From Desulfurivibrionaceae bacterium (GTDB lineage: Bacteria; Desulfobacterota; Desulfobulbia; Desulfobulbales; JAGXFP01): a stretch of 59,740 nucleotides of DNA. Each line of letters starts with the position of its first letter. Positions within the stretch are counted from its first letter, which is position 1. This document shows, piece by piece, positions 30,722-49,498 of the stretch. The stretch is taken from assembly GCA_046484585.1 (NCBI GenBank), contig JAWOIQ010000148.1:1-59740 (forward strand), given 5' to 3'. The notes under the pieces were generated by a model. That model saw only the letters and a list, made by a program, of their open reading frames with translations. It was not told the DNA's origin and did not search any database. A program made the translations under genes and the position numbers.

Positions 30722-33529
30722 TTACGGTTTATGCTCCTTTTTCAACAAGATAGCCTGTTCCGGGTAAATAAGGTCGGGATTGGCGATATCGTTCTCGTTG
30801 GCCACGGATGGATAGTTGTAAGGGGTGCCGGTGAACCGCTTGGAGATAGCCCAAAGGGTGTCCCCCTTTTTTACCGTGTAAACCCGGGTCGGTAAAGGGA
30901 TATTGTCGGGAACTGTAATGGTGAGGGTCGGCCGCTCCCTTTTTAGCGCCCCGGTGACTAATTCCGGGCTGCCGGGAGATGCGGCAAGCGGTTCGTCGGG
31001 CTCGGCGACGGCAGGTTCCGCGGTGGCCGATTTCAGGTCGGCAACGATCTGATTCGCGACTGAAGAGCGATCTTTAGGTACGGTAAGCAGTTTCTCCGGT
31101 TTATGGTCGGGGGGAGACCATAATATAAAAAGATTGATCATCGCCATGAGCAGAAGGGAGAGGAGCACAATCGAGCGTGCCCGGGAACTTCGGTTTTGCC
31201 GCTCAACCGCGGCGGGGAGGGCTGGAGGTAACTCAGCCTCTTCCAGCTGCCGGTTTTCATGGTCTTCTGAAGAGGTCGGTATCGGCGGCTCCTTCTCCGA
31301 GGGGATTTCAGCCTCCCCGCCCAGCAGGGTTTTTTCAAACTCCCGTACCTCGTCTGCCTGCCGCCGCTTTTCGGACTTCTGATCCGGGCCTGAATCCGCG
31401 GCTATTGGTTGCGGCGGCTCTTCGGCTTCCGTTTGTGCTTTTTTCTGAACAAATCGACTCCCCGGTTCTTTTTGCTTTTGCCGGGCGATGATTCGGTGCA
31501 TGCCGGCCAGCAGCTCGGCGGCGTTTTCAGAATTGTCCGTGCCTTGCTCCATCGGCGGGGCCGGCTTAAGAATCTCTTCCGCTGACTGTTCGGCGGAGAT
31601 TGGGGGGTTATTCCCGGCAGCTTCGGCGGCTTCTCTCGCGGGACTTTCCCCGCTAACGCTCATCCCGGAAAGTGATCTGGATGCAATGGCATTTAGCGGG
31701 CTTTCGGGTTCCCGGGGCGATGGCGGGGCGGCATTACCGGCATTCCCGGCAGGTTTCGGCTCTTCGGGCAATTGCCCGGAAGTTCCCGGCTTCAAGGGCA
31801 GGGGGCATTCGGCGGAATGGGGCAATACCATGATCTCGTCATTTAAGGACTGGTCGATCGAGCTCGTTATTCCGCCGCTTTTATCCTCCGGCAGCTCATA
31901 TGTTTTTGCCTTGATCGCTCCCGGTTCCCGGCTGGAATCTGGCGGGGCGGTTATCTCCCTGCCAGGTTGTTGCGTTTTCCGGGTTTCAGCCGGAATCTCG
32001 GGAACTCCCGCGCCGACTTCCGTTTGTTCCCGGAATTTCGCGGGCAAATCCAACAACAAGGTCTTCTCTTTCAATCCGGCAAGGGGCCGGGCTTGCGACG
32101 ATGTATCGGCCAGTCCCGCGGTGTGGGAGGAGAGGAACTCTCTGACGCCGTTTTTGTCGAAACGGGTGGCAAGGTCGGCGGCATTGATGATCAGGCGAAC
32201 CCGGTTGGCATCGGGGTAACACCCGTAAACCAGACTGTCGCTATGGCTGAGCGGCACTTCCTTGTGGATAGACAGCGGCAGTTTCCGGTCCGGAAAGGTC
32301 GATTCGCTGACGATGAAGGCCAGAAAATCACCGTTCTTGATCAGAATCATTTGCCAGTCAAGGCTGATCGGGGAGAAGCGGCCAAAGACCAGGGCCGGGT
32401 CGAGGATGGGTACGATCCTGTCCTGATGCATGATTATCCCGATCACCAGGGATTGGAGACCGGGGAGTTTCCGAAAAGAGCTGACCGGTAAAATATCCTC
32501 GACCTCTTCCCTGGGAAGGGCGTGTTTTTCCCCGAGAAGGATAAACTCCACTACTTCAATATCCCGATGGTTAAAGTGCCGGGAGAATTTTGAATCGAGC
32601 CGGTAGCTGTGTTCGGGCGGGGAGTACTTTTTTTGAGCGGAGAGGTCGGGGTCGAGGATGGCGGGGGGCTCAAGCAGGGGGATCAGCTCCCCGTCGTAAA
32701 CAACGATCGATTTGATCAGCGGTGATTGTGCCAGGGGGGGAAGATGGTGGACGATATACTGATGGTCGCCAATTTCCCCCAGATAAGCATCGACCAGAAG
32801 GAAGAAACGATCTTCGCCGAGATCGATGTTCAACAACCGTTCGGCCTGATCGATTCGCGCAGGCAAATCGATTTTTCCGGTCAGGTCGATGACCGGGCTT
32901 AAGAAATTATCGACAAAAGCCACCCCCTTAATAAAAGGCGGGGTCGCGGGAAGAGCTGTAATGGACAACGGTTTGTCGAAAACGCGATCGGCAATCTCAC
33001 CCGGCAATCCAAAAACTTCTCCGCCGGCCTTGCATAATTTGATGCTTTTCGGTTCCGGGGCCGGCGGCCTTTGGTCGGGCGCCGGGAAAGTGGGCAGGGA
33101 TGGAGTCAGCTTTCCGGCGTTGATGAGCCGGTAGAGGGCTTTTAAATCGATTATCGGTACGGCGCGGCCCCGATAATCGAGGCAGGATGAGATCTCGGCG
33201 GTTGCCAGGTATCGCGGCATCCGGTGGAAGGATTCTTCCCCGATCTCGATTTCGGCAAGCTCCCCGGCGAAGATAAAACCGGACTCTGCCCCCTCACCGG
33301 CGCCAATGATAACTTGGGCAGGATATTTGCCGGCGAAGGAGGGCAGGCCGATCAGGGCCGCGAGATCGGCCAGGGCGATTCTGCGCCTGTCGATCATCGC
33401 CAGGCCGACGATGTGTTCCGGGCTGAACGGCAACCGATGGACCCTTTCGACCTCCATTGCCGTTGCCACATCTTCCTTCCGGACGGCAAAGCGATGATCG
33501 CTCAAGGTGAGTTGGTAGATTGCACTCAT
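30722..33529 (-). CDS. Triple CheW-domain, low-complexity linker, TM, LysM protein
   Basis: Three CheW-like repeats (LPFSPEHIVGL, LPATPPFIKGV, LPGLQSLVIGI); TM IVLLSLLLMAMINLFILW; LysM YTVKKGDTLWAISKRF...NDIANPDLIYPEQAI. Confidence 0.85.
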   Translation of the reverse strand: MSAIYQLTLSDHRFAVRKEDVATAMEVERVHRLPFSPEHIVGLAMIDRRRIALADLAALIGLPSFAGKYPAQVIIGAGEGAESGFIFAGELAEIEIGEESFHRMPRYLATAEISSCLDYRGRAVPIIDLKALYRLINAGKLTPSLPTFPAPDQRPPAPEPKSIKLCKAGGEVFGLPGEIADRVFDKPLSITALPATPPFIKGVAFVDNFLSPVIDLTGKIDLPARIDQAERLLNIDLGEDRFFLLVDAYLGEIGDHQYIVHHLPPLAQSPLIKSIVVYDGELIPLLEPPAILDPDLSAQKKYSPPEHSYRLDSKFSRHFNHRDIEVVEFILLGEKHALPREEVEDILPVSSFRKLPGLQSLVIGIIMHQDRIVPILDPALVFGRFSPISLDWQMILIKNGDFLAFIVSESTFPDRKLPLSIHKEVPLSHSDSLVYGCYPDANRVRLIINAADLATRFDKNGVREFLSSHTAGLADTSSQARPLAGLKEKTLLLDLPAKFREQTEVGAGVPEIPAETRKTQQPGREITAPPDSSREPGAIKAKTYELPEDKSGGITSSIDQSLNDEIMVLPHSAECPLPLKPGTSGQLPEEPKPAGNAGNAAPPSPREPESPLNAIASRSLSGMSVSGESPAREAAEAAGNNPPISAEQSAEEILKPAPPMEQGTDNSENAAELLAGMHRIIARQKQKEPGSRFVQKKAQTEAEEPPQPIAADSGPDQKSEKRRQADEVREFEKTLLGGEAEIPSEKEPPIPTSSEDHENRQLEEAELPPALPAAVERQNRSSRARSIVLLSLLLMAMINLFILWSPPDHKPEKLLTVPKDRSSVANQIVADLKSATAEPAVAEPDEPLAASPGSPELVTGALKRERPTLTITVPDNIPLPTRVYTVKKGDTLWAISKRFTGTPYNYPSVANENDIANPDLIYPEQAILLKKEHKP

Positions 33530-33558
33530 GAATTTGATTTCTGGCGCTAACTCATTTT

Positions 33559-35409
33559 TTAACGTTCGGCGGCAGGCGGTTTCCGGTTGCATTGATGAAC
33601 CGCTTGCTCGGCGGTCGGCGAGGACACGAGCCGGCTTTCATTGTCCAGAATTTCCCGGACCCGGTGCAGTAATTCGTTCGGTAATATCGGCTTGGAAAGA
33701 AAGTGGGCGCCTTCGGTGACCATCCCCTGGTTTTTGATGATATCGGGCGCATAGCCGCTGATGAAAAGGACTTTGGCTTCAGAGGATTCGCGGAGGATTT
33801 CAGCGAAGACCTCCTTGCCGTTTTGTCCCGGCATGATTACATCCAGGATGACCAGTCCGATCGGGTTATCGGCCTCTTTAAATTTAGCAACCGCCTCGTG
33901 GCCGTCCTTGGCCATGATAATCCTGTACCCGTAGCTTCCCAGGATCTCGGACAATAATTTTCTTACCGACTCTTCGTCCTCGGCGATCAGGATGGTTTCA
34001 TTGCCCCCCTCGATCTTGTAAGATTCGGATCGATGTTTCTGGGCAACCGATTTTTCGGTGCAGGGAAGCAGGATCTGGAAGGTCGTGCCATGGCCTTTCC
34101 GGCTGTGGGCGTCTATGTAACCCTTGTGCTGCTTGATGATGCCGTGCACGATGGAAAGTCCCAGCCCGGTGCCCTGCTCCTCATCCTTTGTGGTGTAAAA
34201 TGGCTCGAATATTTTTTCAAGGGTTGCGCCATCCATCCCCTCGCCGTCATCCGAAAATGAAATGCGGGCATATTTACCGGCTCGGTCGAGTTCGAAGGCT
34301 TTCGAGGCTTTTTCGTCAAGGAAGGTTTCAGAAACTTCGATGGTGAAGGTCCCGTTGTCCTTGATGGCGCCACTGGCGTTGGCGGCCATGTTAATTATTA
34401 CCTGCTCCAGCTGACCCGAATCGGCCTTGGCGATCAGCCTGTCTGGAGATGTTTTAATGATAAGTTCGATGTTTTCTCCCAGAATTCTACCCAGGAGTTT
34501 CTCCATGCCCGTGACCACTTCGTTGACATCGACCGGTTTGGGATTCAGGATCTGTTTGCGGCTGAAGGCAAGCAGGCTTCTGGTCACCGCCGCCGCCTTG
34601 TTGGCGGCCGAGAGGATCTCGGTCAAGTTTTCGTGATCGGGATTGTCATTTGCCATGTTCATCAGGCTTAATTCGCTGTAGCCGACGATTGTGGTAAGAA
34701 AATTATTGAAATCGTGGGCAACCCCACCGGCAAGCTGGCCCAGGGCCTCCATCTTCTGAGCCTGGCGCAGCTGGGCTTCGAGCTGCCTGTTTTCGGCCTG
34801 GGTCTCCATGATCTTGGTGACGTCGAAAAAGAAACCCTTGAGATAGATCGCTTTCTCGTCCGTGGTTTCGACGAAAACGAGATCCCTGATCCAGAGGGTT
34901 CGGCCGTCGGCGGTGATCATCCGGTAGACGAGCTCATGGTCCGCGTTTTTTCCCGTGGCGGAAAGGCAGAAGTCCATCGCGAACTCCCGGTCGTCGGGAT
35001 GGATCTTGTCGGCCCAGGACTCGAAATCTATCATTTCCCCGGGCTTGTAACCGGTCAGCGAGGTGAGCCTTTCGCCCATATAGATGAATTTTTGAGTGGC
35101 AACGTCAAGCTTCCACGGTACCGCCGAGGTTGAGTCGATCAGTTTTTTGAGCTCCGTCTCGCTGGCGTTTTTCCCCTTCTCCGAGGCAACCGCCTTTTCG
35201 TAATAATCGGCGATCAGCAACCCGAAAAGAAACATGGTAAACAGGGTCATGCTTCGGATGAAAATCTCGTTGCCAGGGACCTTGAAAATCAGCAGATCCA
35301 GAAAAGAAGCGTCGTAAAAAAGAACGCTGTCCACCCAGGCATCGGTAACTCCGATCAGGATGCCGAAGAGAATGGAAGCGGTGATGATTCTGGTCTTTTT
35401 GGTCATCAT
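33559..35409 (-). CDS. Membrane PAS hybrid histidine kinase (CckA-like)
   Basis: 2 TM, PAS (IHPDDR), AGGVAHDFNN, FEPFYTTK, GTGLGL, C-terminal receiver LDVIMP. Confidence 0.92.
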   Translation of the reverse strand: MMTKKTRIITASILFGILIGVTDAWVDSVLFYDASFLDLLIFKVPGNEIFIRSMTLFTMFLFGLLIADYYEKAVASEKGKNASETELKKLIDSTSAVPWKLDVATQKFIYMGERLTSLTGYKPGEMIDFESWADKIHPDDREFAMDFCLSATGKNADHELVYRMITADGRTLWIRDLVFVETTDEKAIYLKGFFFDVTKIMETQAENRQLEAQLRQAQKMEALGQLAGGVAHDFNNFLTTIVGYSELSLMNMANDNPDHENLTEILSAANKAAAVTRSLLAFSRKQILNPKPVDVNEVVTGMEKLLGRILGENIELIIKTSPDRLIAKADSGQLEQVIINMAANASGAIKDNGTFTIEVSETFLDEKASKAFELDRAGKYARISFSDDGEGMDGATLEKIFEPFYTTKDEEQGTGLGLSIVHGIIKQHKGYIDAHSRKGHGTTFQILLPCTEKSVAQKHRSESYKIEGGNETILIAEDEESVRKLLSEILGSYGYRIIMAKDGHEAVAKFKEADNPIGLVILDVIMPGQNGKEVFAEILRESSEAKVLFISGYAPDIIKNQGMVTEGAHFLSKPILPNELLHRVREILDNESRLVSSPTAEQAVHQCNRKPPAAER

Positions 35410-35562: not shown

Positions 35563-36597
35563 TTACTCATCCATGATAATGCTCGAAAAACCGTTGACCT
35601 GGCTGAGGTTCGCCTCCCTGGCGAAACGGTCATCAATCAGGCCCGTAATCTCGTTGGTTGCTGAAAGGCCGAATTCCACCATCAGGTCGGCCAGTTGCTG
35701 CATTTCGACGGGGTCCGGCGTGAACCGATCGAATCTGACCCGGTCCGTCGGGTTACCCATCACGTAGCTGATCAGCTCTTCCGGCTGATTCCAGTAACCC
35801 GCGGCGATCCGGGCAGCTTCATCGAGATTGGACCGGGCCCAGATCCCGCTTCGGGCCGCGTTCTGGACCAGATTTTTAACGGTTTCCGGTTCCCGGTCTA
35901 TCAGCGACTGATTGGTGATAAGCAGGTTGCAGACAAAATCGGGCCAGACATCCTCGACATAAAAGAGTAAAGAGGAGTCGCCGTTCCGGATGGTCTGGGC
36001 CGCGAAGGGTTCCCCGACAAAATAAGCATCGAGCGCTCCCGTAGCCATGGCCGAGGCCATGTCGGGAGGGTTCATCTCGACGATATTTACGCTCCGGGCC
36101 AAGCCCTGATCGGCAAGGAGGCGGCGCAGGATCAGGTTGTGACCGGAGAAGCGCATGGGCACGGCGATGGTTCCGCCGGCCAGATCGGCCAGTGATTCAG
36201 CCTTGAGATCCTTGCGGGCGACCAGGCTGCTTTCGTGGCGGTTGCCGATATAGACAATCTTGATGTCGCTGCCCTGCTGCCGCAGGACTACGGCCAGCGG
36301 CGCGATGATAAAGGCGGCCTGGATGTGCTCGTTGCGCAGGGCCTCGGCCATTTCGGCAAAAGAGGAAAATTTTAAAGCCTTGTAGCGCGTTCGGCCGTGG
36401 TCGCGGCTGGCATGGTCGAGAAGGGGCGCGGCCAGATTGCTGACCACCGGCATATAGCCCATCCGGATCACCTTCGCCTGGCCCTGGTAGATATTGAACC
36501 GGTAATGGGACCAGGAGATCAGGATCAGCCAGGCTAAGGCGAGAACGGCAATGCGGACCGGCAAGGAGCTATTCTTAAGCGAAACCTTAAACGGCAT
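35563..36597 (-). CDS. NitT/TauT-family ABC transporter substrate-binding protein
   Basis: MGYMPV, IAVPMRFS, MNPPDM, VGEPF; N-terminal anchor. Confidence 0.85.
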   Translation of the reverse strand: MPFKVSLKNSSLPVRIAVLALAWLILISWSHYRFNIYQGQAKVIRMGYMPVVSNLAAPLLDHASRDHGRTRYKALKFSSFAEMAEALRNEHIQAAFIIAPLAVVLRQQGSDIKIVYIGNRHESSLVARKDLKAESLADLAGGTIAVPMRFSGHNLILRRLLADQGLARSVNIVEMNPPDMASAMATGALDAYFVGEPFAAQTIRNGDSSLLFYVEDVWPDFVCNLLITNQSLIDREPETVKNLVQNAARSGIWARSNLDEAARIAAGYWNQPEELISYVMGNPTDRVRFDRFTPDPVEMQQLADLMVEFGLSATNEITGLIDDRFAREANLSQVNGFSSIIMDE

Positions 36598-37381
36598 AAC
36601 TGACTCCGAGCATAAAAAAGATTTCTTCCCTCAACTCCTGCAACTCCGGCGCGGTTTTCGGGTCGCGGGGATGGGGGAAGTCCAGCTTGCGGTTCAGCTT
36701 CACCTGGGCCGGGCGGCCGCTCAGGATCACGACCCGGTCGCCCATGATCAGGGCATCGTCGATATTATGGGTGACCAGCAGGATAGTCTTGCCCAGATAA
36801 AGATGCATGTTGACTACTTCCTCACGCATCTTCATGTGAGTCAGGAAATCGAGGCCGCTGAACGGTTCATCCATGATAAGCATCTCAGGGTTGACCACCA
36901 GGGCGCGGGCCAGTTCGGCCCGGCGCTGCATGCCGCCGGACAACTGGTGGGGATAGTGGTTTTCGAAGCCTTCCAGCTCGACCATGTCGATATACTCCTG
37001 AATGGTCTCTTCCCGTTCGACGGGATCATTGAGCCGGCGGATCCCGAGTTCGATATTCTGCCAGACCGTCATCCAGGGCAGCAGGCCGTTATGCTGATAT
37101 ACGAAGATGTTGTCGGGACTTGGTTTCGACAGTTGGTGACCGTCCTGCAAAACCCGGCCGGAGCTCGGTTGCTCGAAACCGGCGATAATCCGCAGCAGGG
37201 TCGATTTTCCGCAGCCCGATGGTCCCAGGATACAGACCATCTCCCCGGCCTCGAATTCAAGGTCCAGATCCTCAAGGACCGTTACCGTCCGGTCGGATTC
37301 AGGCCTGCCGTCCTTATCCCGCTTATGTTGACGCCGTTCGATAAACTCTTTGTTCAGATTTTCGATGAGGATGTGGCCCAT
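36587..37381 (-). CDS. NitT/TauT-family ABC transporter ATPase
   Basis: GPSGCGKST, LSGGM, MDEPF, VTH. Confidence 0.93.
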   Translation of the reverse strand: MGHILIENLNKEFIERRQHKRDKDGRPESDRTVTVLEDLDLEFEAGEMVCILGPSGCGKSTLLRIIAGFEQPSSGRVLQDGHQLSKPSPDNIFVYQHNGLLPWMTVWQNIELGIRRLNDPVEREETIQEYIDMVELEGFENHYPHQLSGGMQRRAELARALVVNPEMLIMDEPFSGLDFLTHMKMREEVVNMHLYLGKTILLVTHNIDDALIMGDRVVILSGRPAQVKLNRKLDFPHPRDPKTAPELQELREEIFFMLGVSYAV

Positions 37382-37425
37382 GGTAGTTGTTTTTCCTGAA
37401 AAAATTGCAGGGTGACCGAACTCGG

Positions 37426-38196
37426 TTATCTGTGGCCCATGGTTCCCCAGGCCGCCGACTCGATGTTCATCAGCTGGCGCATAATGTAGTCGAGCAGCAG
37501 GCCGATCACCCCGATCACCACCATGCCGACCATCACATAGTCCATGCGCAGGGCATTTCTGGAGTCAAGGATCAGATAGCCAAGGCCTGACTGAACCGCG
37601 ATCATCTCCGCCGCTACCACTACCAGCCAGGCGATGGTTATGGAGAGCCGCAGGGCCGTGACGATGGCCGGAATGGTGGCGGGAACCATAATCTTGGTAA
37701 AGCTTTCCAGCCGGCTGAAATTGAAATTGTTTGCAACCTGAAAATAGATAGGATTGATCGAGCGGACGGCGATGGTAGTTGCGACCAGCAGGGGAAAGAA
37801 GCTGGAAAGAAAGATCAGAAAGATTGCCGGCAAGTCGCCGATCCCGAACCACAGCATCGATAAGGGAATCCAGGCCAGTGGCGAGATGGGCCGCAGGAAA
37901 TGGATAACCGGATTTACCATGAGACGCAGAGGTTTGCATCTGCCCAGACACATTCCCAGAGGAATGCCCAGGAACATGGCCAGATAAAAACCGGCGGTGA
38001 CCCGATACAGACTGGCTATCGAATGCCTGATCAGGGTGCCGTTGCCGGTCAGTTCGATCAGACTGGCCAGGACCGCCCCCGGCCCCGGGAATATCTGGGC
38101 GCTCCAGCCGCTGAAACGGGCGGTCAGTTCCCAGAGCGTCAGGGCGCCCAGAAAGGCGGCAGCGGCATAAATAAAGGCTGGTTTTGAGGATTCCAT
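37426..38196 (-). CDS. NitT/TauT-family ABC transporter permease
   Basis: LRPISPLAWIPL, VVAAEM, GLGYLI. Confidence 0.92.
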   Translation of the reverse strand: MESSKPAFIYAAAAFLGALTLWELTARFSGWSAQIFPGPGAVLASLIELTGNGTLIRHSIASLYRVTAGFYLAMFLGIPLGMCLGRCKPLRLMVNPVIHFLRPISPLAWIPLSMLWFGIGDLPAIFLIFLSSFFPLLVATTIAVRSINPIYFQVANNFNFSRLESFTKIMVPATIPAIVTALRLSITIAWLVVVAAEMIAVQSGLGYLILDSRNALRMDYVMVGMVVIGVIGLLLDYIMRQLMNIESAAWGTMGHR

Positions 38197-38270: not shown

Positions 38271-39203
38271 TCATGATTTTTCGCCGCGAAGTTCCTCGGC
38301 CAGTTCCATATATTGGCGGGCCGAACTGCTGTTGGCGTCATATTGGGCGACGGGAACGTTCATTATTTGCGACTCCTGAAGTTTTACATCGAAGTCGATG
38401 GTGGTCGCGAAGACCTTGTCCCTGTATTTGTTTTTGATCTTGTCATGGATCACCTTGGTGGCGGTGCTGTTCTCGTTGAACATGGTGATCAGGATTTTGT
38501 AATCGATACTGTCGTTCTGTTTGCGCCTGACGATATCGATTACTTCCTCAATATGGGCGACGCCGTGCATCGACAGGTATTCGCACTGGGTCGGGATTAT
38601 TACGAAATCGGAGGCCATCAGGGCGTTTAAGGTAAAAAATTCGATGGTGGGCGGTGTGTCGATGATGATATGGTCGACCTTGTCCTTGATCCCTTCCAGT
38701 TTATCCCGGAGTATTTGTTCGAAGTTAGGCCGGTTGATATTCTTTTTCATCAACAGAGCCAGATTCGGTCCGGACGGCAGCAGCCAGAGATTAGAGTACT
38801 TGGTTCTGGTAATTACATTGGCGAGGGTGGCGCCGGGGACATGGAGCAGATCGTAAAAGGTTCTGTTTTGCCGGTTGAGCCCCAGGGCGATGGTCAGACT
38901 TGCCTGCATGTCGAAATCGATCAACAGCACCCGTTTGCCGCGCAGGGCCAGGGCCATGCCCAGATTGATGGCGCTGGAGGTTTTGGCGACCCCGCCTTTC
39001 TGGTTGCTGACGGCAATGATCCGATGGGGAGGGACGGCCGGCAGGGCCGCTTCTTCCGGCAGATCAAGGGGTTTTATCTCCTCGGGCTTCTGGACGGTAA
39101 AGATCTTGCCGCATTTTGAGCACTTGACCTTGAAGATCGACTGGCTGATCAGTTCATCGGCAACATTGTAGCGGGTTTCGCACTGTTCGCAGGTGATTAT
39201 CAT
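38271..39203 (-). CDS. ParA-family ATPase with N-terminal MJ0042-type zinc ribbon
   Basis: CEQC...CSKC; deviant Walker A NQKGGVAKT; LIDFDMQ; IIDTPP. Confidence 0.9.
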   Translation of the reverse strand: MIITCEQCETRYNVADELISQSIFKVKCSKCGKIFTVQKPEEIKPLDLPEEAALPAVPPHRIIAVSNQKGGVAKTSSAINLGMALALRGKRVLLIDFDMQASLTIALGLNRQNRTFYDLLHVPGATLANVITRTKYSNLWLLPSGPNLALLMKKNINRPNFEQILRDKLEGIKDKVDHIIIDTPPTIEFFTLNALMASDFVIIPTQCEYLSMHGVAHIEEVIDIVRRKQNDSIDYKILITMFNENSTATKVIHDKIKNKYRDKVFATTIDFDVKLQESQIMNVPVAQYDANSSSARQYMELAEELRGEKS

Positions 39204-39290: not shown

Positions 39291-40331
39291 TCAACCCATT
39301 ATGGTTTCGATCTGCCCGACGATTTCATTTTCCTCGACAAGGTAGTCTACGGCTCCCTGTTCCACAGCGTGCTGGGTCAGATTGGGGTAAACGCAGGTAT
39401 TGGTGCTCTGGGCGATGGTCGCGCCATCTTTTTCCTTGATCTTGGCAAAGCCGACGGCCCCGTCGTTGCCTACTCCGGTCAGGAGAAGGCCGATGGTGTT
39501 ACGTTTAAATACTTCGGCGGCCGAGGAGAACAGCAGGTCAAGGGGCTTCTCCACCCCTGCCGATACTCCGATGATCGCCTCGCCGTCACCATTGGTTGCG
39601 ATGGTCACCGCGTTTTCGTTCGAGGCTATATAGCAGGTTCCCTGTTCCATCACAGTGCCGTCCCTGGCGATTTCTATCTTCCAGTCCGTATGCTCGTCGA
39701 ATTTCCGGACGAATGACTCGAGGATCTGGGAGGCGATGTCCATGACGATGACCGTGGTGGCCGGCAATTGCGGGGAAAGATTGGAGAGCAGCCGGATGAA
39801 GGTATTGGGTCCGGAGATGGTGGTGCCGATAGCGATGATCGACTCCAGATCCTGAAAGCCGTAGCGTTGGCTGAGGGATTGTTCGACATCGAGTTTCGAG
39901 AGCCGGACCCGCCTGATATTTTCGATATTGACCGCGGTGGCGATCTTGATCCGGTCGATGATTTTCCGGCTGGCGCTGTGGATGTCCCGCGAGACCGCGC
40001 CGGAAGGTTTCGGCACGAAATCGACCACTCCCAGGCGCAGGGCCTCGAAGGTTATGGAGCCGTCGTTGTAAAGCGAACTCAGGACCACGATCGGTATCGG
40101 CGCCTCGATCATGATATGGCGGACCGCCCTGATCCCGTCCATCACCGGCATGTCCATGTCGAGGGTGATGACGTCCGGCCGTAGCTCCTTGACCTTTGCC
40201 AGCCCTTCAAGACCGTTTTTGGCGGTTCCCACCACCTCGAGCATCGGATCGGATTCGAGAATGTCGCTGACCGCCTTGACCATGAAGGCGGCGTCATCGA
40301 CTACCAGCACTCTGATCTTTTCATTGTCCAT
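39291..40331 (-). CDS. cheB: CheB-like response regulator with degenerate methylesterase site
   Basis: Intact receiver (VDD, LDMDMP, KP); GTTISGP in place of GASTGGP, MDI in place of QHM, GNDGA retained. Confidence 0.85.
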   Translation of the reverse strand: MDNEKIRVLVVDDAAFMVKAVSDILESDPMLEVVGTAKNGLEGLAKVKELRPDVITLDMDMPVMDGIRAVRHIMIEAPIPIVVLSSLYNDGSITFEALRLGVVDFVPKPSGAVSRDIHSASRKIIDRIKIATAVNIENIRRVRLSKLDVEQSLSQRYGFQDLESIIAIGTTISGPNTFIRLLSNLSPQLPATTVIVMDIASQILESFVRKFDEHTDWKIEIARDGTVMEQGTCYIASNENAVTIATNGDGEAIIGVSAGVEKPLDLLFSSAAEVFKRNTIGLLLTGVGNDGAVGFAKIKEKDGATIAQSTNTCVYPNLTQHAVEQGAVDYLVEENEIVGQIETIMG

Positions 40332-40383
40332 ATAGGTCCCGTATTATTTCGTGGTCCAGGTTGCCGAGCCGCGAAACACTTCT

Positions 40384-43300
40384 TCAGTGAATGGTTTCCG
40401 GGCCGGCCGCTTCGGCGCTCGGCACTTTTTTCATGCCCCCGCCGGCCTTGATGACCCGGTTTTTGTTTTTACGACTCATGGTCTGGGCTCTGGAGCGTTC
40501 GATCTGTTTTTCGGAGGTCATCTTGACCAGTTCATAGATATCGAGAATCAGGGAGATCCGGCCGTCGCCGATGATCGTTGCTCCGGAGAAACCGCTCTCC
40601 TCCCGGAGGTAGTCGACCAGAGGCTTGATCACAACTTCTTCCTGGCCGATCAGCTCGTCGACCACCAGGCCGATCTCCTGCATGCCGGTGGTGACGATGA
40701 CCACGAAGGACTGGCTGATGTCCCTGCTGGCGCCTTCAATCCCGAAGACATCGGCCAGCCGGAAAATGGGCATGGTCGTATCGCGCATATGAATAACCTC
40801 GACGCCCTCGATGGTGGAGGTGTCATGTTCGAAGATCCGCAGGGTTTCTTCAACCACCGACAGGGGAATGGTGAAAAGTTCATCGCCGACCCGGACCATC
40901 AGGGCCTGGATGATGGCCAGGGTCAGGGGGATCTTGATCCGGATCATGGTCTGCACGCCCTGCTGGGACTCGACCTCGACGGTGCCGTTCAGCTTTTCGA
41001 TATTGGTTTTGATCACGTCCATGCCGACCCCGCGCCCCGAGGTTTCGGTGGCGGTTTCGGCGGTGGAGAAGCCCGGCATCATGATGAACCTTCTCGCCTC
41101 GGCATCGGAAATGCGGGAGATCTCCTGCTGGCTTATCAAGCCCTTGGCGACGGCCTTGCTCTTGATCTTGTCGATGTCGATGCCGCGGCCGTCATCGGTG
41201 ATTTCGATGACGATATGATTGCTTTCATGATAGGCTTCGAGGACCAGGGAGCCGGTTTCGTCCTTGCCCGCTTTGCGCCTTTCCTCCGGGGTTTCGAGGC
41301 CATGGTCGACCGCGTTGCGGATAATGTGGATCAGGGGGTCGGAGATTTCCTCGATCACCATTTTATCGAGTTCGGTTTCCTCGCCGCGAACTTCCAGATT
41401 GACTTTTTTGCCGGTCTTGTGGATCAGGTCGCGGACCAGGCGCGGGTAACGGTTGAAGAGCTGGGCCACCGGCAGCATCCTTATTTTCATTACACCTTCC
41501 TGAAGCTCGTTTGATACCCGGCCCAGGCCGACGGTGGCTTCGCCCAGCTTGAAGGTCAGTTCCCTGATCGGTTTCAAGCCCTTGGCGTCGAAGCCGCCTT
41601 CCTCCTTCATCTCCTGTTGAAACTCCTTCAGGTAGTTGAAGATCTGGGCAAAATAGGCGCGGCTGACCACCAGTTCGCCCACCTGGTTCATCAGCGAATC
41701 GATCTTGTCGGAGTCGACCCGGATGCTCTGCTTATAGGTGCGTTCACCGCCCTCCCGGCGTTCTTCCCGGCGGCGTTCAGTCCGGCGGCGTTCCTCCCCG
41801 CCGAGATCCGGCGTCGCGACTTCGCCTGTTGCCTCGACAGGTTCCTCGCCGCTTTCCGTCCCGCCCGGCTCTTCATCAAGCTCGGGGGCTGAGGGTGTTT
41901 CAATCGGGGCTTCCTCGTTTACAGAGGACGCCTCGCCAAACAACATCTCTTCCAGGATGCCGTGCAGGGGTTCCATGCCCTGCCGGTTGCCGCCGGCCAT
42001 GGCGGTGTCGATGGAGTCGCTCAGGGTTGCGAACAAATCATCTTCGTTGCTGCGATCTTCGCCGCCGGAAGAAGGTTCGGCCCGGGGGCCGTCCGTATTA
42101 TCGGCGAATAACCGAGGTTCCTCTTCGGGGCCGCTATCCGGCAAGTCCGGAAACAGAGCGCTCATCAAGTCAAGATAGTCGTTTATAAAACCCGGATCAT
42201 CATCCATTCCGGCTTCGCTGATCTGGGCGTGCCATCTCTCGTAGAGATCGACCAGGTTTGCGTATCCCATATAGTTAGCCGAGGACTTGAGTTTGGCGAC
42301 GCGGTCCCGGCAGAGTTCGAGCAGGTTTGTCCGGTCGCCGGTCCCGCCTTCGGCCATGGCCCGGCGGATTGAGCCAAGGTTTTCCGAAACCTGTTTGAGG
42401 AAGATTTCGAACAGTTCGTCGTCGTAAAGCTCTTCCGAAATTTCGGCCCTGATTGTTTCTTCATCGGTTGCACACACCCCGGCAACTGACGGAACGGCAA
42501 GGTCTTCGCCACCCTGGTTTTCCGCGAAAGGGTCGGCGGCGGCCGGTTGCGACTCGTTCAGCCGGGGGATGGTCCGGAAAATCAGGGCCAGATGATCGTC
42601 CATAAAAGAAAAATCGGTTTCGGCGGATTCCGCGAGGCGTTCCCCGGCGGCGGAAAGTTCGGCCTGCCAGAGATCGTAGAGGCCAACCAGATTGGCATAG
42701 CTCATATAGTTGGCGGAAGACCTGAGGTTTGCCAGCAGATCCCGGCAACTCGCGAAGCTCTCCGCGCCGTTCGCAGGATCGTGCAATTGCGCGGTCAGCT
42801 GCCGGAGTTTGTCGAGATTGTTCCTGGTCTGCCCGATGAAAATATCGAAGAGTTCCTCATCGTGTTCCTCTCCCCGCAGTTCATTGCGGATGAGTTCTTC
42901 GTAGAGCGGTTCGGAGGAGGAGGCGAACAGCTCTTCCTGGTCCGGCCGGTTTGGTGGCGAATCCTCACCGAAAAAATCACCCAGTATCGAGGTGTCGAGG
43001 TCGTCGTCTTGGATCGAAGCCGCCGAGCCGCCGGCGATAACGTCGTCCAGGATGGAAGTGTCGAGGGCTTCTTCCAGGGCACTCCTCAGATCGAGCTCAT
43101 CGGAGGGGGCTTCCGCCGGGGGCTCTTCAGGACAATCCAGGGCCGGCGGGGCCTCATCCGATAATGACAGGATCCTGGCCAGCAGGTCATCAATTTCGCT
43201 TTTCTCGGCCTGATTGATTTCGAGTTCCTTGGTGAGGTTAATCAACCGGTCCCGGGTTTCGATCAAGGTGTCGATGATATCCTGATTTACTTTCTTCTCA

Positions 43301-43539
43301 CCCTGGCGCAGAAGATCGAGTAGGTTTTCCATCTTGTGGGACAGTTCCGAAACCCTGGGCAGACCGACGAACTGCGAGGCCCCCTTGATGGTATGGATGG
43401 CCCGGAATATATCGTTGAGGATTTCAAGGTCATCCGGCTCCCTTTCGAGTTTGAGCAGGCCTGATTCCATCTCTTCAAGATGCTCGTTGGCTTCGGTGAT
43501 GAAATCCTGAAGTAGCGATAAATCAATCATGATATCCAC
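40384..43539 (-). CDS. cheA: Chemotaxis histidine kinase with extra pseudo-Hpt domains
   Basis: FRAIHTIKG Hpt, NQVGELV dimerisation, IRNAVDHG, DDGRG, SGRGVGMDV, PLTLAI, P5 domain. Confidence 0.95.
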   Translation of the reverse strand: MDIMIDLSLLQDFITEANEHLEEMESGLLKLEREPDDLEILNDIFRAIHTIKGASQFVGLPRVSELSHKMENLLDLLRQGEKKVNQDIIDTLIETRDRLINLTKELEINQAEKSEIDDLLARILSLSDEAPPALDCPEEPPAEAPSDELDLRSALEEALDTSILDDVIAGGSAASIQDDDLDTSILGDFFGEDSPPNRPDQEELFASSSEPLYEELIRNELRGEEHDEELFDIFIGQTRNNLDKLRQLTAQLHDPANGAESFASCRDLLANLRSSANYMSYANLVGLYDLWQAELSAAGERLAESAETDFSFMDDHLALIFRTIPRLNESQPAAADPFAENQGGEDLAVPSVAGVCATDEETIRAEISEELYDDELFEIFLKQVSENLGSIRRAMAEGGTGDRTNLLELCRDRVAKLKSSANYMGYANLVDLYERWHAQISEAGMDDDPGFINDYLDLMSALFPDLPDSGPEEEPRLFADNTDGPRAEPSSGGEDRSNEDDLFATLSDSIDTAMAGGNRQGMEPLHGILEEMLFGEASSVNEEAPIETPSAPELDEEPGGTESGEEPVEATGEVATPDLGGEERRRTERRREERREGGERTYKQSIRVDSDKIDSLMNQVGELVVSRAYFAQIFNYLKEFQQEMKEEGGFDAKGLKPIRELTFKLGEATVGLGRVSNELQEGVMKIRMLPVAQLFNRYPRLVRDLIHKTGKKVNLEVRGEETELDKMVIEEISDPLIHIIRNAVDHGLETPEERRKAGKDETGSLVLEAYHESNHIVIEITDDGRGIDIDKIKSKAVAKGLISQQEISRISDAEARRFIMMPGFSTAETATETSGRGVGMDVIKTNIEKLNGTVEVESQQGVQTMIRIKIPLTLAIIQALMVRVGDELFTIPLSVVEETLRIFEHDTSTIEGVEVIHMRDTTMPIFRLADVFGIEGASRDISQSFVVIVTTGMQEIGLVVDELIGQEEVVIKPLVDYLREESGFSGATIIGDGRISLILDIYELVKMTSEKQIERSRAQTMSRKNKNRVIKAGGGMKKVPSAEAAGPETIH

Positions 43540-43553
43540 TCTCTGATTAGTTA

Positions 43554-43695
43554 GTGCATGTCCATAAATGGTCTTTTTGCCCGATAACTTCGTCGCCGCG
43601 GAGTCGGAAAGTGCTCACGTACCTGAGTACGCTGCGCTTTTCCGACATCCTTGCTTTTCGTTCTCGGACAAAAATCCTCATTTATCGACAGACAC
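43554..43695. repeat. Palindromic element F
   Basis: Imperfect TIR GTGCATGTCCATAAATG / CATTTATCGACAGACAC, nested stems, centre CGTAC-CTGA-GTACG; supplies the stop codon of the upstream gene. Confidence 0.75.
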
Positions 43696-44434
43696 CAGGT
43701 TGCGATTTCCCGGCGTCGTTTTTGGCTAATGCCATATTTCCCCGCAAGGTTACGTCGAAGAATTCGAATTGGCTGGTGAGATCCTGCATCTGCACCAATT
43801 CCGCCCTGATTAGTTCGAGACGGTCCAGAATCTGTTCCCGGGAAACTCCCTGGGGTTTCTCCAGGGTTTTGATGGTCTCTTCGACAATCCCCAGATTGTG
43901 GTCGCTGAGATTCCAGACCAGCAGGAGAACCTCTTGCAGATTCATGGCCAGGGAGTTGACGTTTTCACCGATCGCGCCGATCGAACAGCCGGCGTTCTCG
44001 CTGTCCCGGACCAGACGGTCCAGGCGGCCGTCGGCCATGTCCCGGCTGAACTTCTCGAGTTTATCAAGGGGCTGAATAATGTTACGGACGAAAAAGACCA
44101 TAAACAGGATCAGGATGCCCGCCAGAACCAGGGTCATGACGGTCAAGCCGAATTCCAGGGCGACATGGGTGCGGGCCAGGGCTTCATTGCCGAGGGTTGC
44201 CGGGTTTTTGCCGGCTTGCTGTTTGTCGTCGGCAATGGCGATGGTATCCAAGATCGCCTCGCCCCGGTTATGGTGGTAAATGGCAACGACACTCAAGAGC
44301 GAAGCCAGCAGAATCAGGATGGTGAAAAAAACCAGGGTTTTCTGGTGGAGCCCGGAACCGATTACACCCAGCCGATTATTGGAGGGCCCGGAATCCATTT
44401 CCAATTTGGAGCTTAACAAAGCGCAGTTCTCCAT
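43682..44434 (-). CDS. 2TM-HAMP protein without a signalling domain
   Basis: Two TM helices, IIQPLDKLEKFSRDMADGRL...IGAIGENVNSLA HAMP, short coiled-coil tail; AAAGG RBS before ATG 44434. Confidence 0.75.
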   Translation of the reverse strand: MENCALLSSKLEMDSGPSNNRLGVIGSGLHQKTLVFFTILILLASLLSVVAIYHHNRGEAILDTIAIADDKQQAGKNPATLGNEALARTHVALEFGLTVMTLVLAGILILFMVFFVRNIIQPLDKLEKFSRDMADGRLDRLVRDSENAGCSIGAIGENVNSLAMNLQEVLLLVWNLSDHNLGIVEETIKTLEKPQGVSREQILDRLELIRAELVQMQDLTSQFEFFDVTLRGNMALAKNDAGKSQPGVCR

Positions 44435-44459
44435 TGTTATGTACCTTTTGGGCTGTGCC

Positions 44460-44630
44460 GAATATTCGTAACCGTTCAGCAGTACCACATCTTCGGACGA
44501 TCGGCCCGGCTTACGTACACGAGGTACGCGGCGCCGGTCCGCTTGTCCAAATCTGCGCCACTGCTGAACGGTTACAGGCCGGCAGTTTTGGGTACTTTGG
44601 CGACCGCCCCGGTGAACGGTTAAGAATATT
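44460..44630. repeat. Palindromic element G
   Basis: Perfect 16-bp TIR GTAACCGTTCAGCAGT (44468-44483) / ACTGCTGAACGGTTAC (44560-44575); centre CGTAC-ACGAG-GTACG; second right end TGAACGGTTAAGAATATT at 44613-44630. Confidence 0.8.
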
Positions 44631-44656
44631 AAGGCCTGAACCCTGGGGAGCGGTGG

Positions 44657-45010
44657 TCATATTCCGTTGATCAGATCCAGGATTTCGGCGGCCTTGTACT
44701 TGTTGACGAAACCGACGGCGCCCATCTCCTCCACCTCTTTCTGGTACTTCGCCTCGTTAAGGTTCGAGAGGAAGATGATCTGGGCGTTCGCGTCAAGATT
44801 TAAAATCTCCCTGGCGGCGGTAATGCCGTCCATGCCCCGCATGGTGATGTCCATGGTCACCAGATCCGGTTTCAACTCCTGATACATCTCAACCGCCTCT
44901 TCCCCGCTTTTGGCCTGGCCGATTACGATGTGGCCGGGGGGATTCAGGATATTGGCGATCATTTTTCGCATCATCGATGAATCATCAACTACCAGAATGC
45001 GTTTACTCAT
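44657..45010 (-). CDS. cheY: Single-domain response regulator
   Basis: ILVVDDS, PDLVTMDITM, conserved Lys; located within the che cluster. Confidence 0.85.
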   Translation of the reverse strand: MSKRILVVDDSSMMRKMIANILNPPGHIVIGQAKSGEEAVEMYQELKPDLVTMDITMRGMDGITAAREILNLDANAQIIFLSNLNEAKYQKEVEEMGAVGFVNKYKAAEILDLINGI

Positions 45011-45011
45011 G

Positions 45012-45530
45012 CTATTCGTCCCCTTCGGCTTCATCCATTGACTTTAGTTTCTTGAACTCTTCCTGCAACAGAATCCGTTTAAAATCGAGGAGGATCAGCA
45101 GCTGGGCGCCGATATCGCAAACCCCCCGCAGATACTGGCTTTCCAGCCCGGCCTTGATGATGTCGGGCGGCGCTTCGATGGTGTTCTCCTGGATCTTTAT
45201 AACCTCGGTTACCGAGTCGACAATAAAGCCGGTGGTCTTGTTCTGGATATCGAGGATCAATATCCAGGTGTCATCGTGATCGGACTCGCTGCTCAGTAAA
45301 CTCAAGCGTTTACGCAGATCGATAACCGGCAGGATGTTGCCGCGCAGGTTGATGACTCCTTCCACGAATTCCGGTGAGTTTGGAACCGGGGTTATCGGGG
45401 CGGCCCGGATGATCTCCTGAACCATTAAGATATCGACACCGAACAGCTCCTTGCCGATCGTGAAACCGACCAGCTGCATCAACTCCTGTTCGGCTTCAAG
45501 TTTCTCGGTAGCTGCATACCTGTCAGCCAT
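45012..45530 (-). CDS. cheW: Chemotaxis coupling protein
   Basis: FGVDILMVQEII, VPNSPEFVEGVINLRGNILPVIDL, GFIVDSV. Confidence 0.95.
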   Translation of the reverse strand: MADRYAATEKLEAEQELMQLVGFTIGKELFGVDILMVQEIIRAAPITPVPNSPEFVEGVINLRGNILPVIDLRKRLSLLSSESDHDDTWILILDIQNKTTGFIVDSVTEVIKIQENTIEAPPDIIKAGLESQYLRGVCDIGAQLLILLDFKRILLQEEFKKLKSMDEAEGDE

Positions 45531-45696
45531 GGCGTGGTTTCTCCCTTCACTGGTAAAATTTTTGGTCAGCCGCGGAAAAGGGCAACCGGGTTTTTGAGTT
45601 AAAAAAACAGCAGCGCCGCCGCGGGGTGGATGGGTTTGAGCGAAAACACACCCCGCGCGGCGACATCGAGTATCAAAAACCAGCGGTTCCGGCCGG

Positions 45697-48255
45697 TTAA
45701 GCCCGCTGTACCTTGAACTGCTCAACCTGAAGTTTCAGGGCCTGGGACTGGCTTTGCAGCTCGTCGGTAATATTCATTACGATTCCGGCGCCTTCGGAGG
45801 TCTGGGTCGCCGCCGCCGAGGACTGGTTCGAAATTTCCATTACCGCCTGGGACCGTTTGGCCTGCTCGCCGGTCATCACTGCCATTTCCTTGGTCCGGCT
45901 GACGATCTCGTGCATTTCCGTGTTGATGTCGGCGGCGCCCTGGTTGGCCTGCCGGACCTGTTCGGTGATTTCCGCCGATTTTTCCTGCAGGGCCTTCAGG
46001 GCGGCCTCGGCGGCCTGCCGACGGGGACCCTGCTCAATAGCCATCGCACCGATGTTCTCGGCCAGATCGTTGAGCTCCTTCATCAGGGTCTGCACCTGGC
46101 CGGTGCTTTTGGCCAGCATGGTCGAGACCGTGGAGATCTCGGTGATCGCCTCCATGTTTACCTTGCCGCTCTCGTCGATCCTGGCAAGCGCCTTTCGGGA
46201 ACTGTCGGTCAACTGGGTTCCCTCTGTTACCCGGCTGGTCGAATCCTTGATAAGCTGGGTGATCTCCTTGGCGGCCTCCGAGGAGCGCTGGGCGAGTTTA
46301 CCAACTTCGTCGGCAACAACCGCGAAACCTTTACCGTGGGCGCCGGCCCGGGCCGCCTCGATAGCGGCGTTAAGGGCGAGGAGGTTGGTCTGCTCGGCAA
46401 TATCGGTAATAACCCCGATGATCTCGGAGATTTGCTCGGAAGATTCGGAGATGGAGCGCATACCTTCAACGGTGGCGGCAACCGAGTTGCTGCCTTCCTC
46501 GGCCGCGGCCAGGGAGGCGGTGCCGTGCTCGGTGGCCCGGGCAACCGCTTTGTTCATCTCATCCACCGCCTTGGCGATTTCGTTTACCGAAGCGGTAACG
46601 CTGACCACCATCTTGCCCTGCTCCTGGGCGGTGGCGGCAACCTTGCCGCCGGTCTCGCCCATCTCGGCCACCCTGGCGGCGGCTTCCTGGGCTTCCCGGT
46701 TCTGGGCCTCGGCGGCCTCGGCGGCCTCTTTCATCGATTGCAGCAGAGCTTCCAGGGTCTTGGTTGATTTGGTCGCCGCGTTTTTCTGACCGGTGGAGGC
46801 CTGGTTGACCATACCGGCGGTGCCGGCCATTTCCTTGATGATCGAGGCGGCCCGGGAGGTTTGCTCCACCTCGTGATCGGCCCTTGTCTTGTTGCCCGAA
46901 GCGCGTTTAGCCACCTCGCCGGCGCCGGTTGCCACCTGCTGGGAGGCGTTGGTTACCTCGACGAATGACCTGTTCAGCTCGTCAATCATGGAGTTGAAGT
47001 CACCCGCCATCATGCCTACCTCGTCCTGGCCCGCAACCGGAACCTTGATGGTCAGATCCTTCTCCCGGGCAACTTTCCGGATCAGGTTGGCGATACCGGC
47101 AATCGGCACCGAGATTGCCTGGGCGATGAAGTAGGCGATCAGGAAGGCGAAGAAGGTCCCGATAATGATACCGGCGATATTCTGCACAGTCGCGGCGGCC
47201 GTAGTGCGGTCGGCGGCGGCATTCGCGGCCTGGATAATCTCTTTCGCATCCGCCTCTACCTGTCCAACCTTGTCGGCAAGGACGATACCGAGGTTGTCGA
47301 TCGAGGTATCGAGATCGGCCAGGGTCTGCTCGATTTTGACGGTGGCGGCGTGATTGTCCATAACCCGCATGGCGGCCGGTTCGAACCGGTTGTTGAGCAT
47401 GGTCAGGGTCGTGGCGGCCATCGACTTCAGATTGCTGTCGGTAAGGGCCCTGATCTGCCCCATATTTTTGGTGTTGGCGCCCTTTGCCATGCCGTTCAGC
47501 CAGATTTTGGCCTTGTCGATATGTTCGGCGAATTCTTGCCGGAACGCGGCATGTTCGGCGCTGTCGGATGACTGGACAAATTCTTCAATGGCCAATCGGG
47601 CGGCGCCGGTCGACAGGGCGATTTCCATGGAAAGGTCTTTCCATTTATTCTCCCTCTCGGCCAACGACTGGACCGAGGTTCCCGAGCGGATCGCCGAATC
47701 GACCAGCCCGTCGACGCCCTCTTCCAGTTCGGTCAGCGCGGCCAGCAGCTCCCGGAAGGATCCTTTCATGTTCGCCATCCCTGCCGCTTCTTCTTTTTCG
47801 GCGGCAAACTTGGCGTTCATGTTCCGGTAAACCTCCTGCATCTGCGGAGTGAATTCGGCGTCGTGCATTCTGGCGGCCTCGGCGACCTCATTGGCCAGCT
47901 TCTGGTCTTCAACCTTATAGATGGTGCCCATCGCGGTTTCGCCGCCCTTGAGAATCGCCGCGGCGTAACCGTCGAATTCCGCGTCGAACTCCTGGTGCTC
48001 CCGCCACATCTCGTCGAGTTCGGCCTTGTCCCCGGCGGTGAGGATCTCCATGAGGATCAAGCGGTCGTTGGTCAGGGCCAGGTCCATTTCCATCGAGGCG
48101 TCGGCTACGGAGGCCGCCTTGTTGACCTCGGTCATCGCGCCCCTGATCGCCGAGATGTTAAAATATCCCAATCCACCGACGATCAAGAGCACAAGGATTA
48201 CCGGCGTGAAGCCGAGCAACAGTTTGTTCTGGATCTTTAAGTTTTTCCAATTCAA
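45697..48255 (-). CDS. Methyl-accepting chemotaxis protein with very long signalling domain
   Basis: TTG start with AAGGAGG RBS; 2 TM, HAMP (GQDEVG), [20 protein letters not shown]...GFAVVADEV. Confidence 0.95.
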
Positions 48256-48372
48256 GGCACCCTCCTCCTTTTGTGAGTTTGCTTAATTCAGTTGTAGTTT
48301 TTTCGTAAAAATATGCTTAAGCGGCCCCGCGGCCGCAGTTCTTCCCGGCTGAAACCGCCCCGTCTCCAGGGG

Positions 48373-49413: not shown

Positions 49414-49498
49414 GTTTTAACTTTAAAAAAGCTGATTCGTTGTTCGGGTTATCCCGTTTCTTGAGGACCGGCGGCAAACAGATGAGAGCAGGCCCCGG

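Follow-up and report, generated by a model that had tools for sequence, protein, structure and literature searches.

A CheW-LysM fusion protein encoded in a chemosensory cluster of a Desulfurivibrionaceae bacterium: a conserved family and a candidate peptidoglycan-tethered baseplate scaffold

What might a protein do that carries three CheW-like domains at one end and a LysM domain at the other? Analysis of a 59,740-nucleotide stretch of DNA from a Desulfurivibrionaceae bacterium (contig JAWOIQ010000148.1; the whole stretch is referred to here as the window) revealed a gene of this kind on the minus strand at positions 30722..33529. The gene encodes 935 amino acids (aa) plus a stop codon and is located at the end of a chemosensory gene cluster. 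The deduced CheW-LysM protein consists of a triple CheW-like module, a long linker, a single transmembrane (TM) helix, and a LysM domain. A Pfam scan of the whole protein returned CheW, in three stretches, and LysM; both profile and fold assign the protein to the CheW-like and LysM domain families. Its architecture and gene context suggest a peptidoglycan-tethered scaffold of the chemosensory baseplate, in which the idea of the HubP-ParC-ParP system would be compressed into one chain. We give this reading about an even chance.

The protein was cut into pieces, and each piece was scored alone against the Pfam CheW profile (PF01584; curated cut-off, 23.5 bits). Three pieces scored above the cut-off and covered profile positions 2 to 135 of 138: CheW-like domain 1 (D1; aa 1-137, 33119..33529, minus strand) with 39.8 bits, domain 2 (D2; aa 162-291, 32657..33046, minus strand) with 39.7 bits, and domain 3 (D3; aa 324-469, 32123..32560, minus strand) with 34.6 bits. 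The AlphaFold2 model of aa 1-480, generated with 91 relatives, reached a mean predicted local distance difference test score (pLDDT) of 90.9 and a predicted TM-score of 0.87, with pLDDT above 88 for D1. The short inter-domain linkers were modeled fairly confidently too. Because the high confidence includes these linkers, the three domains are predicted to form one rigid body rather than beads on a string. Searching the Protein Data Bank with Foldseek (E ≤ 0.001) revealed 18 matches, of which 17 were CheW or CheA-P5 chains. Target-normalized TM-scores lay between 0.65 and 0.81 when the match was a stand-alone CheW chain or the isolated P5 chain 4jpb_A. The root mean square deviation over the 17 matches was 2.3 to 8.6 Å (2.3 to 2.9 Å for the best crystal chains), at sequence identities of 11 to 26% to the solved chains. 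By model and Foldseek comparison, the module has the two-subdomain beta-barrel fold of CheW and CheA-P5.

Comparison with hhalign aligned D1 with D2 (E = 2.9e-23) and placed all three domains nearer to CheW than to P5. The E values against the CheW of the cluster were 1.2e-14 for D1, 2.3e-20 for D2, and 1.4e-10 for D3, and the E value of D3 against P5 was 0.077. D3 is the best conserved domain inside the family, yet it is the most divergent from CheW. Family alignments revealed two invariant residues in D3, G364 and C437. The invariant cysteine lies inside a near-invariant YGCYPD motif (aa 435-440), which is unusual for a cytoplasmic scaffold domain. The module thus shares Pfam family and fold with canonical CheW and CheA P5; unlike canonical CheW, it does not conserve the arginine of the INLRG motif, and D3 has its own invariant cysteine. 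Complex prediction for the triple-CheW module and the P5 domain of CheA returned ipSAE (interaction prediction score from aligned errors) values of 0.00 and 0.01, which give no verdict, neither for nor against binding.

The linker behind D3 (aa 470-785, 31175..32122, minus strand) is acidic, rich in Pro, Ala, and Glu, and predicted to be disordered and cytoplasmic. It comprises 316 aa from the end of the D3 profile match to the start of the TM helix. Glutamate makes up 13.4% of aa 470-783 (314 aa), alanine and proline 12.4% each, and serine 9.2%, and the 313-aa middle piece of the protein gave no match to any Pfam family. In the full-length AlphaFold2 model, generated with 78 relatives, aa 1-470 were confident and aa 484-783 had mostly pLDDT below 50, except for two short helices. 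The single TM helix (aa 786-804, 31118..31174, minus strand) corresponds to the best Kyte-Doolittle 19-mer (mean, 2.46), and AlphaFold2 places a helix at residues 783 to 803. It is followed by a low-complexity, predicted periplasmic spacer (aa 805-883, 30881..31117, minus strand; pLDDT below 50 for residues 807 to 863) and by the C-terminal LysM domain (aa 884-929, 30743..30880, minus strand), which scored 39.1 bits against the Pfam LysM profile (PF01476; cut-off, 20.9 bits). In the model, aa 869-931 adopt the beta-alpha-alpha-beta fold of LysM, with strands at 869-873, 883-885, and 926-931, helices at 892-900 and 903-912, and pLDDT of about 87 to 95 from residue 871.

How is the protein oriented in the membrane? 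No signal peptide was found at the N terminus, where the CheW fold begins at residue 2. Across the family, the 15 residues before the TM helix contain on average 4.2 lysines plus arginines (K+R), versus 2.4 after it; the count before the helix was higher in 104 of 140 proteins, equal in 18, and lower in 18. The lack of a signal peptide, the N-terminal CheW fold, and the K+R bias together predict a bitopic inner-membrane protein whose CheW domains are cytoplasmic and whose LysM domain is periplasmic. The first-pass annotation, made from the sequence alone, had described three CheW-like repeats, about 300 aa of Pro/Glu/Ala-rich linker, a TM helix at 31121-31175, and a C-terminal LysM at 30735-30882. 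Pfam and AlphaFold2 agree with that architecture, the coordinates differ by a few bases, and LysM is predicted to be periplasmic and not, as had been considered, cytoplasmic.

Does the fusion exist beyond the window? A word-based search retrieved 10 proteins with CheW and LysM (33 to 100% identity). A HMMER search over 1.84 billion cluster representatives gave 2956 matches at E ≤ 0.001; at the stricter threshold of E ≤ 1e-30, 194 clusters remained. The union of the proteins from both searches formed a set of 155 relatives. Of these, 140 matched a LysM profile built in this study at their C terminus, and each of the 140 has a hydrophobic helix between D3 and LysM. They share the architecture at 23 to 90% identity and are encoded on independent contigs of up to 1.2 Mb. 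The remaining 15 relatives lack LysM; all are short (393 to 753 aa) and may have been cut at contig ends. In the family, the sequence of the linker is not conserved, its length varies between 126 and 724 aa (median, 269.5), and its composition is acidic (E 18.0%, A 12.9%, P 8.3%, and D 5.6% versus R 5.7%). Between the TM helix and the beginning of the LysM profile match, the family has a median of 56 aa.

In the window, the minus-strand reading frame is uninterrupted over 30722..33592. The start at 33529 yields the 935-aa protein and coincides with the N termini of the close homologues P0002 to P0004; an alternative ATG at 33592, if used, would overlap the preceding kinase gene. In the genus, four genomes carry the gene (G000, which is the genome of the window, G001, G005, and G007), and their matches contain no internal stop codon. 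A triple CheW gene might have been joined to a separate LysM gene by a frameshift, a missed stop codon, or chimeric assembly. The single frame, the absence of stops in the four carriers, and the recurrence of the architecture in 140 of the 155 relatives on many independent contigs effectively refute this explanation, and its probability is close to nil. The CheW-LysM fusion is a real conserved family, not an artefact.

Names for the family in the databases are automatic only. The ESM Atlas contains a cluster auto-named "CheW-like/LysM domain-containing protein" with 108 members, most commonly from Nitrospirota, and shorter CheW-plus-LysM clusters from Pseudomonadota. NCBIfam has no model that matches the whole protein; it gave three LysM-type matches only and none to the FimV family. 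A full-text literature search for CheW with LysM, which did not cover supplements listing rare CheW architectures, found no description of a CheW-LysM fusion. LysM and multi-CheW proteins are unmentioned in the main text of a survey of Geobacter che clusters (PMC2577667). The main text of a survey of CheW architectures (bioRxiv 10.1101/2022.05.07.491035) does not contain the term LysM; its supplements and figures list 111 architectures, which may include the fusion.

A motif scan of GTDB representative genomes located the gene at 18 loci. Five are in Desulfobacterota-type metagenome-assembled genomes (MAGs; L016, L017, L025, L030, and L033), and 13 are in MAGs assigned to Gallionella, Nitrosomonadales, or "beta proteobacterium." In the genus of the window, full-length copies are present in G000, G001, G005, and G007. 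The gene was not found in G002 (80% complete), G003 (56%), G004 (95%), and G006 (84%), nor, with this query, in the other 33 genomes of the order.

Analysis of the genomic localization revealed that the gene is the last of a cluster transcribed from the same strand with short gaps. In the 5'-to-3' direction, the cluster encodes a REC-DUF4388-TPR-REC protein, CheB, a methyl-accepting chemotaxis protein (MCP), CheW, CheY, a 268-aa TM protein, CheA, a further CheB, a ParA/MinD-type ATPase, an ATP-binding cassette (ABC) transporter, a PAS hybrid histidine kinase, and the CheW-LysM protein. The core chemosensory genes, encoding the MCP (852 aa), CheW, CheY, the 268-aa TM protein, CheA (1051 aa), and CheB, occupy 39291..48255 on the minus strand. 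The ParA/MinD-type ATPase (38271..39203, minus strand) carries an N-terminal MJ0042 zinc ribbon according to Pfam and NCBIfam and is referred to as ZnParA. The genome (G000) is 98.4% complete and encodes one MCP and one CheA, both in this cluster; a single extra CheW is paired with CheY on a small contig. No FlhA-family match was found in this genome, which encodes eight T2SSE-family ATPases. The chemosensory system is therefore regarded as non-flagellar, and it appears to be the only one in the genome.

The order CheA-CheB-ZnParA-ABC transporter-(histidine kinase)-CheW-LysM gene is kept in L016, L017, L030, and L033. In the more distant L025, the gene is rearranged to the opposite end of the same che cluster and divergently oriented; CheA and ZnParA of that contig are 55% and 54% identical to the window proteins. 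Full-length ZnParA orthologues (71 to 96% identity) are present in G001, G003, G005, and G007 besides G000, and only in these among 41 related genomes. Orthologous CheA is confined to the same five genomes. G003, which is 56% complete, has CheA and ZnParA, and the CheW-LysM gene was not found in it. None of the three (gene, CheA orthologue, and ZnParA) was found in G002, G004, and G006. In this lineage, the CheW-LysM gene travels with the che cluster.

How could one polypeptide connect a chemosensory array to the cell wall? A baseplate role of the N-terminal module is suggested by its CheW fold, by the rigid arrangement of its three domains, and by the linkage of the gene to che genes. The rigid triple-CheW unit, formed by the N-terminal 470 residues, would slot into or nucleate the baseplate of the single long MCP, CheA, and CheW. 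The TM helix would be connected to this unit by a flexible acidic tether some 316 residues long, and the periplasmic C-terminal LysM domain would grip peptidoglycan. The array would thereby be stapled to the cell wall, with its position fixed and its diffusion and loss at division prevented. The co-inherited zinc-ribbon ParA-like ATPase may be a partner. The analysis shows the architecture, the fold, the conserved fusion, and, in this genus, the linkage and co-occurrence of the genes; we infer the topology, the incorporation into the baseplate, the binding of peptidoglycan, and any role of the ParA-like ATPase.

The dimensions of the system are consistent with such a tether. The MCP has TM helices near residues 12 to 30 and 360 to 382, and its hairpin tip is near residue 640, which leaves about 212 residues for each hairpin arm downstream of the HAMP domain. 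With a rise of 0.15 nm per helical residue, this would put the baseplate an estimated 30 to 35 nm below the membrane. The disordered 316-residue chain has a contour length of more than 100 nm, so that the linker can reach the baseplate. A cognate MCP can be identified only in the cluster-linked loci, and its length varies little among them (852 or 851 aa, compared with about 811 aa in L025). The first-pass annotation had proposed that the linker would let the CheW domains reach the tip of a very long MCP, and the cognate MCP is indeed long.

Several observations weigh against a baseplate scaffold. The INLRG motif is present in the window's own CheW and in the aligned CheW chains of T. maritima and T. 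tengcongensis. Its arginine, which we take to be the equivalent of R62 of Escherichia coli CheW and important for receptor or kinase coupling, is absent from all three domains, with D, D, and Q at the aligned positions, and across 145 aligned family members these columns contain mostly D, E, N, or G. With the arginine lost from D1 to D3, receptor or kinase coupling may not be canonical. The K+R bias around the TM helix of the CheW-LysM protein itself is small, 4 before versus 3 after. The gene context outside the lineage also differs: searching the flanks of the 13 betaproteobacterial loci by phmmer with the window proteins revealed no CheA, CheW, or ZnParA, and three Desulfobacterota loci of family f22 likewise have no che neighbors. 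The only flanking matches in the betaproteobacterial loci were weak ones, CheB-like in L023 and MCP-like in L026, and the neighbors in L018 are housekeeping genes (proB, obg, rho, and a HAD hydrolase gene). Finally, the family is rare and patchy. It was found in 5 of 401 genomes of a phylum sample, namely, G000 and four of the five genomes of f22, and in 2 of 121 genomes of the family of the betaproteobacterial G041, with seven candidates scored per genome.

Some of these observations would fit a general wall-anchored landmark or hub, in which the CheW-like domains are re-used for other partners (for example, response regulators, diguanylate cyclases, or pilus components) and the che linkage in the genus is secondary. 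The loss of the canonical arginine from all three domains, the divergence from CheW of D3, the best conserved domain, and the solitary position of the gene in Gallionella-type and f22 genomes all favor such a hub. So does a REC-GGDEF gene located directly upstream on the same strand in the Gallionella-type loci L026 (5961-6950) and L029 (2640-3689), with a similar upstream REC match in L021 and L028, as does the resemblance of the acidic linker to the partner-binding region described for HubP (PMC8789113). Nevertheless, all three domains still score above the CheW cut-off and keep the CheW fold, CheA co-occurs strictly with the gene in the genus, and the linkage survives the rearrangement in L025. 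Beyond the genus, three to four CheA matches were found in each of G041 to G044, including one of about 1850 aa, and three to five in each of G050, G093, G129, G195, and G502; a zinc-ribbon ParA orthologue was found in none of these genomes. At least one CheA is present in 14 of 14 carriers checked (G000, G001, G005, G007, G041 to G045, G050, G093, G129, G195, and G502), which is weak evidence against a hub because CheA is common in these groups. A hub is regarded as unlikely, although it is the main rival to the baseplate scaffold.

The wall might also be the stimulus rather than the anchor. LysM would then detect the state of peptidoglycan or muropeptides and alter CheA through clustering or tether tension. 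The topology is indeed receptor-like, with a ligand-binding domain outside and a CheA-coupling domain inside, additional inputs would be useful to a genome with only one MCP, and the system is non-flagellar, with no FlhA match. However, a non-conserved disordered linker of 126 to 724 aa cannot transmit a conformational signal, LysM is the sole periplasmic domain and sits at the extreme C terminus behind a disordered spacer, and there is no evidence of ligand specificity. We consider a sensory input of this kind quite improbable.

The peptidoglycan-tethered baseplate scaffold may be compared with systems known to position arrays. HubP has been described as a membrane protein with one TM helix that combines a periplasmic LysM domain with a large acidic region in the cytosol; its LysM domain is necessary and sufficient for polar targeting, and the protein positions arrays through ParC and ParP (PMC8789113). 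The CheW-LysM protein shares with the HubP-ParC-ParP system of Vibrio (and FimV of Pseudomonas) a LysM domain, a lone TM helix, and an extended acidic region in the cytoplasm; its linker corresponds to the large acidic region of the HubP type. Further likenesses to HubP-ParC-ParP are a CheW-like domain, which makes the array contact there, and a ParA-like gene in the che cluster, with the ZnParA gene following cheB as parC does in Vibrio. The systems also differ. One polypeptide is found here instead of three proteins, it has three CheW-like domains instead of one, and its ParA-like ATPase carries an MJ0042 zinc ribbon, unlike that of the HubP-ParC-ParP system. HubP and FimV have an N-terminal periplasmic LysM followed by the TM helix and a cytoplasmic C-terminal part, whereas here CheW is N-terminal and predicted inside and LysM is C-terminal and predicted outside; the C-terminal half resembles a mirror image of HubP. 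ParP consists of a ParC-binding N-terminal region and a single C-terminal CheW-like domain and is encoded next to parC; the architecture here visibly differs, and the parA-like gene is located five genes upstream of the CheW-LysM gene. No match to FimV_Cterm (TIGR03504) was found anywhere in G000. The initial annotation had proposed a merger of ParP-like and HubP/FimV-like roles. The orientation is reversed, NCBIfam gave LysM-type matches only, and, as judged from the sequence, the CheW-LysM protein is not a HubP/FimV homologue and has no sequence homology to HubP beyond LysM.

Concatenated CheW domains have a precedent in VC1402, the triple CheW of the F9/cluster I system of Vibrio cholerae, which is reported to form array baseplates with CheA (PMC7534058). 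Two- and three-domain types, CheW.II and CheW.III, are described as rare architectures, and CheW.III is defined as having no other detectable domain (bioRxiv 10.1101/2022.05.07.491035). The CheW-LysM protein shares the three tandem CheW-like domains with CheW.III and VC1402. Unlike soluble CheW.III proteins, it has a TM helix and LysM and so falls outside the CheW.III definition, and the only MCP here is a transmembrane protein, in contrast to the cytoplasmic arrays that VC1402 serves. A soluble triple CheW of the CheW.III type (about 542 aa) is encoded in a genome of the same taxonomic order (L005, G025:C3:51467-52672), about 4 kb away from a CheA gene. Its similarity to the CheW-LysM protein is weak (24 to 26% identity, E = 3e-10).

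The remaining genes of the cluster and its surroundings have features of their own. The PAS/HisKA/HATPase/REC hybrid histidine kinase gene (33559..35409, minus strand) ends 29 nucleotides upstream of the CheW-LysM gene; it is present in L016 and L017 and absent in L030 and L033. The ABC transporter genes (permease, ATPase, and NMT1-type binding protein; 35563..38196, minus strand) are located between the parA-like and kinase genes, and this place is kept in L016, L017, L030, and L033. The transporter with its NMT1-type binding protein could provide the single MCP with a ligand or with input from a binding protein. The head of the cluster (48373..51247, minus strand) is formed by the second cheB and the gene of the REC-DUF4388-TPR-REC protein (49499-51247). 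DUF4388 is the PATAN domain found in PatA-type regulators, which are associated with motility by type IV pili, and its presence would fit a non-flagellar output. The cluster contains two cheB genes and no cheR gene (39291-51247). The sole CheR-domain match of G000 belongs to a CheR/coiled-coil/PAS fusion encoded where contig C48 begins and may not be a chemotaxis CheR.

CheA (40384-43539) has an acidic region of about 500 residues between the Hpt and dimerization domains. By eye, two similar modules, each about 100 aa long and unnamed by Pfam, can be recognized in this region; both end in SSANYM.YANLV. The 268-aa protein (43682-44488), whose gene lies between cheY and cheA, contains hydrophobic segments; it matched no Pfam family and, in NCBIfam, only weakly the PmrB N-terminal region. 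It is kept at the same position in L025 and L033. A convergent gene (29803-30243, plus strand) faces the 3' end of the CheW-LysM gene; its product is small and secreted and carries two bacterial SH3 domains of the TIGR04211 type. The neighborhood composed of this SH3 protein, a Fer4 membrane protein, a thiamine-binding protein, and PilZ is kept in L015/L030 and L016.

A further idea concerns the arrangement of the three domains in the lattice. The triple-CheW module could represent half of a six-membered CheW ring, which two copies, or one copy together with CheA-P5 and CheW, would close, and the ring would hang from peptidoglycan by one or two acidic tethers. This arrangement is a long shot. 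If true, it would provide a direct mechanical link between the cell wall and the kinase lattice; arrays could be inherited and positioned without a polar landmark, and envelope strain or wall remodeling could be fed to CheA in a non-flagellar system.

The placement and inheritance of arrays are known in few model bacteria, where they depend on several proteins: HubP, ParC, and ParP, or FimV and its partners. If the proposed scaffold is correct, one chain running from peptidoglycan to the baseplate would do that job. The family comprises no fewer than 194 clusters at 50% identity, occurs in two or more phyla, and bears automatic names only; it represents a sizeable blind spot among chemotaxis proteins. 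It would also be a clean test case for two questions, namely, whether arrays must be physically connected to the wall and what role concatenated CheW domains play in the lattice.

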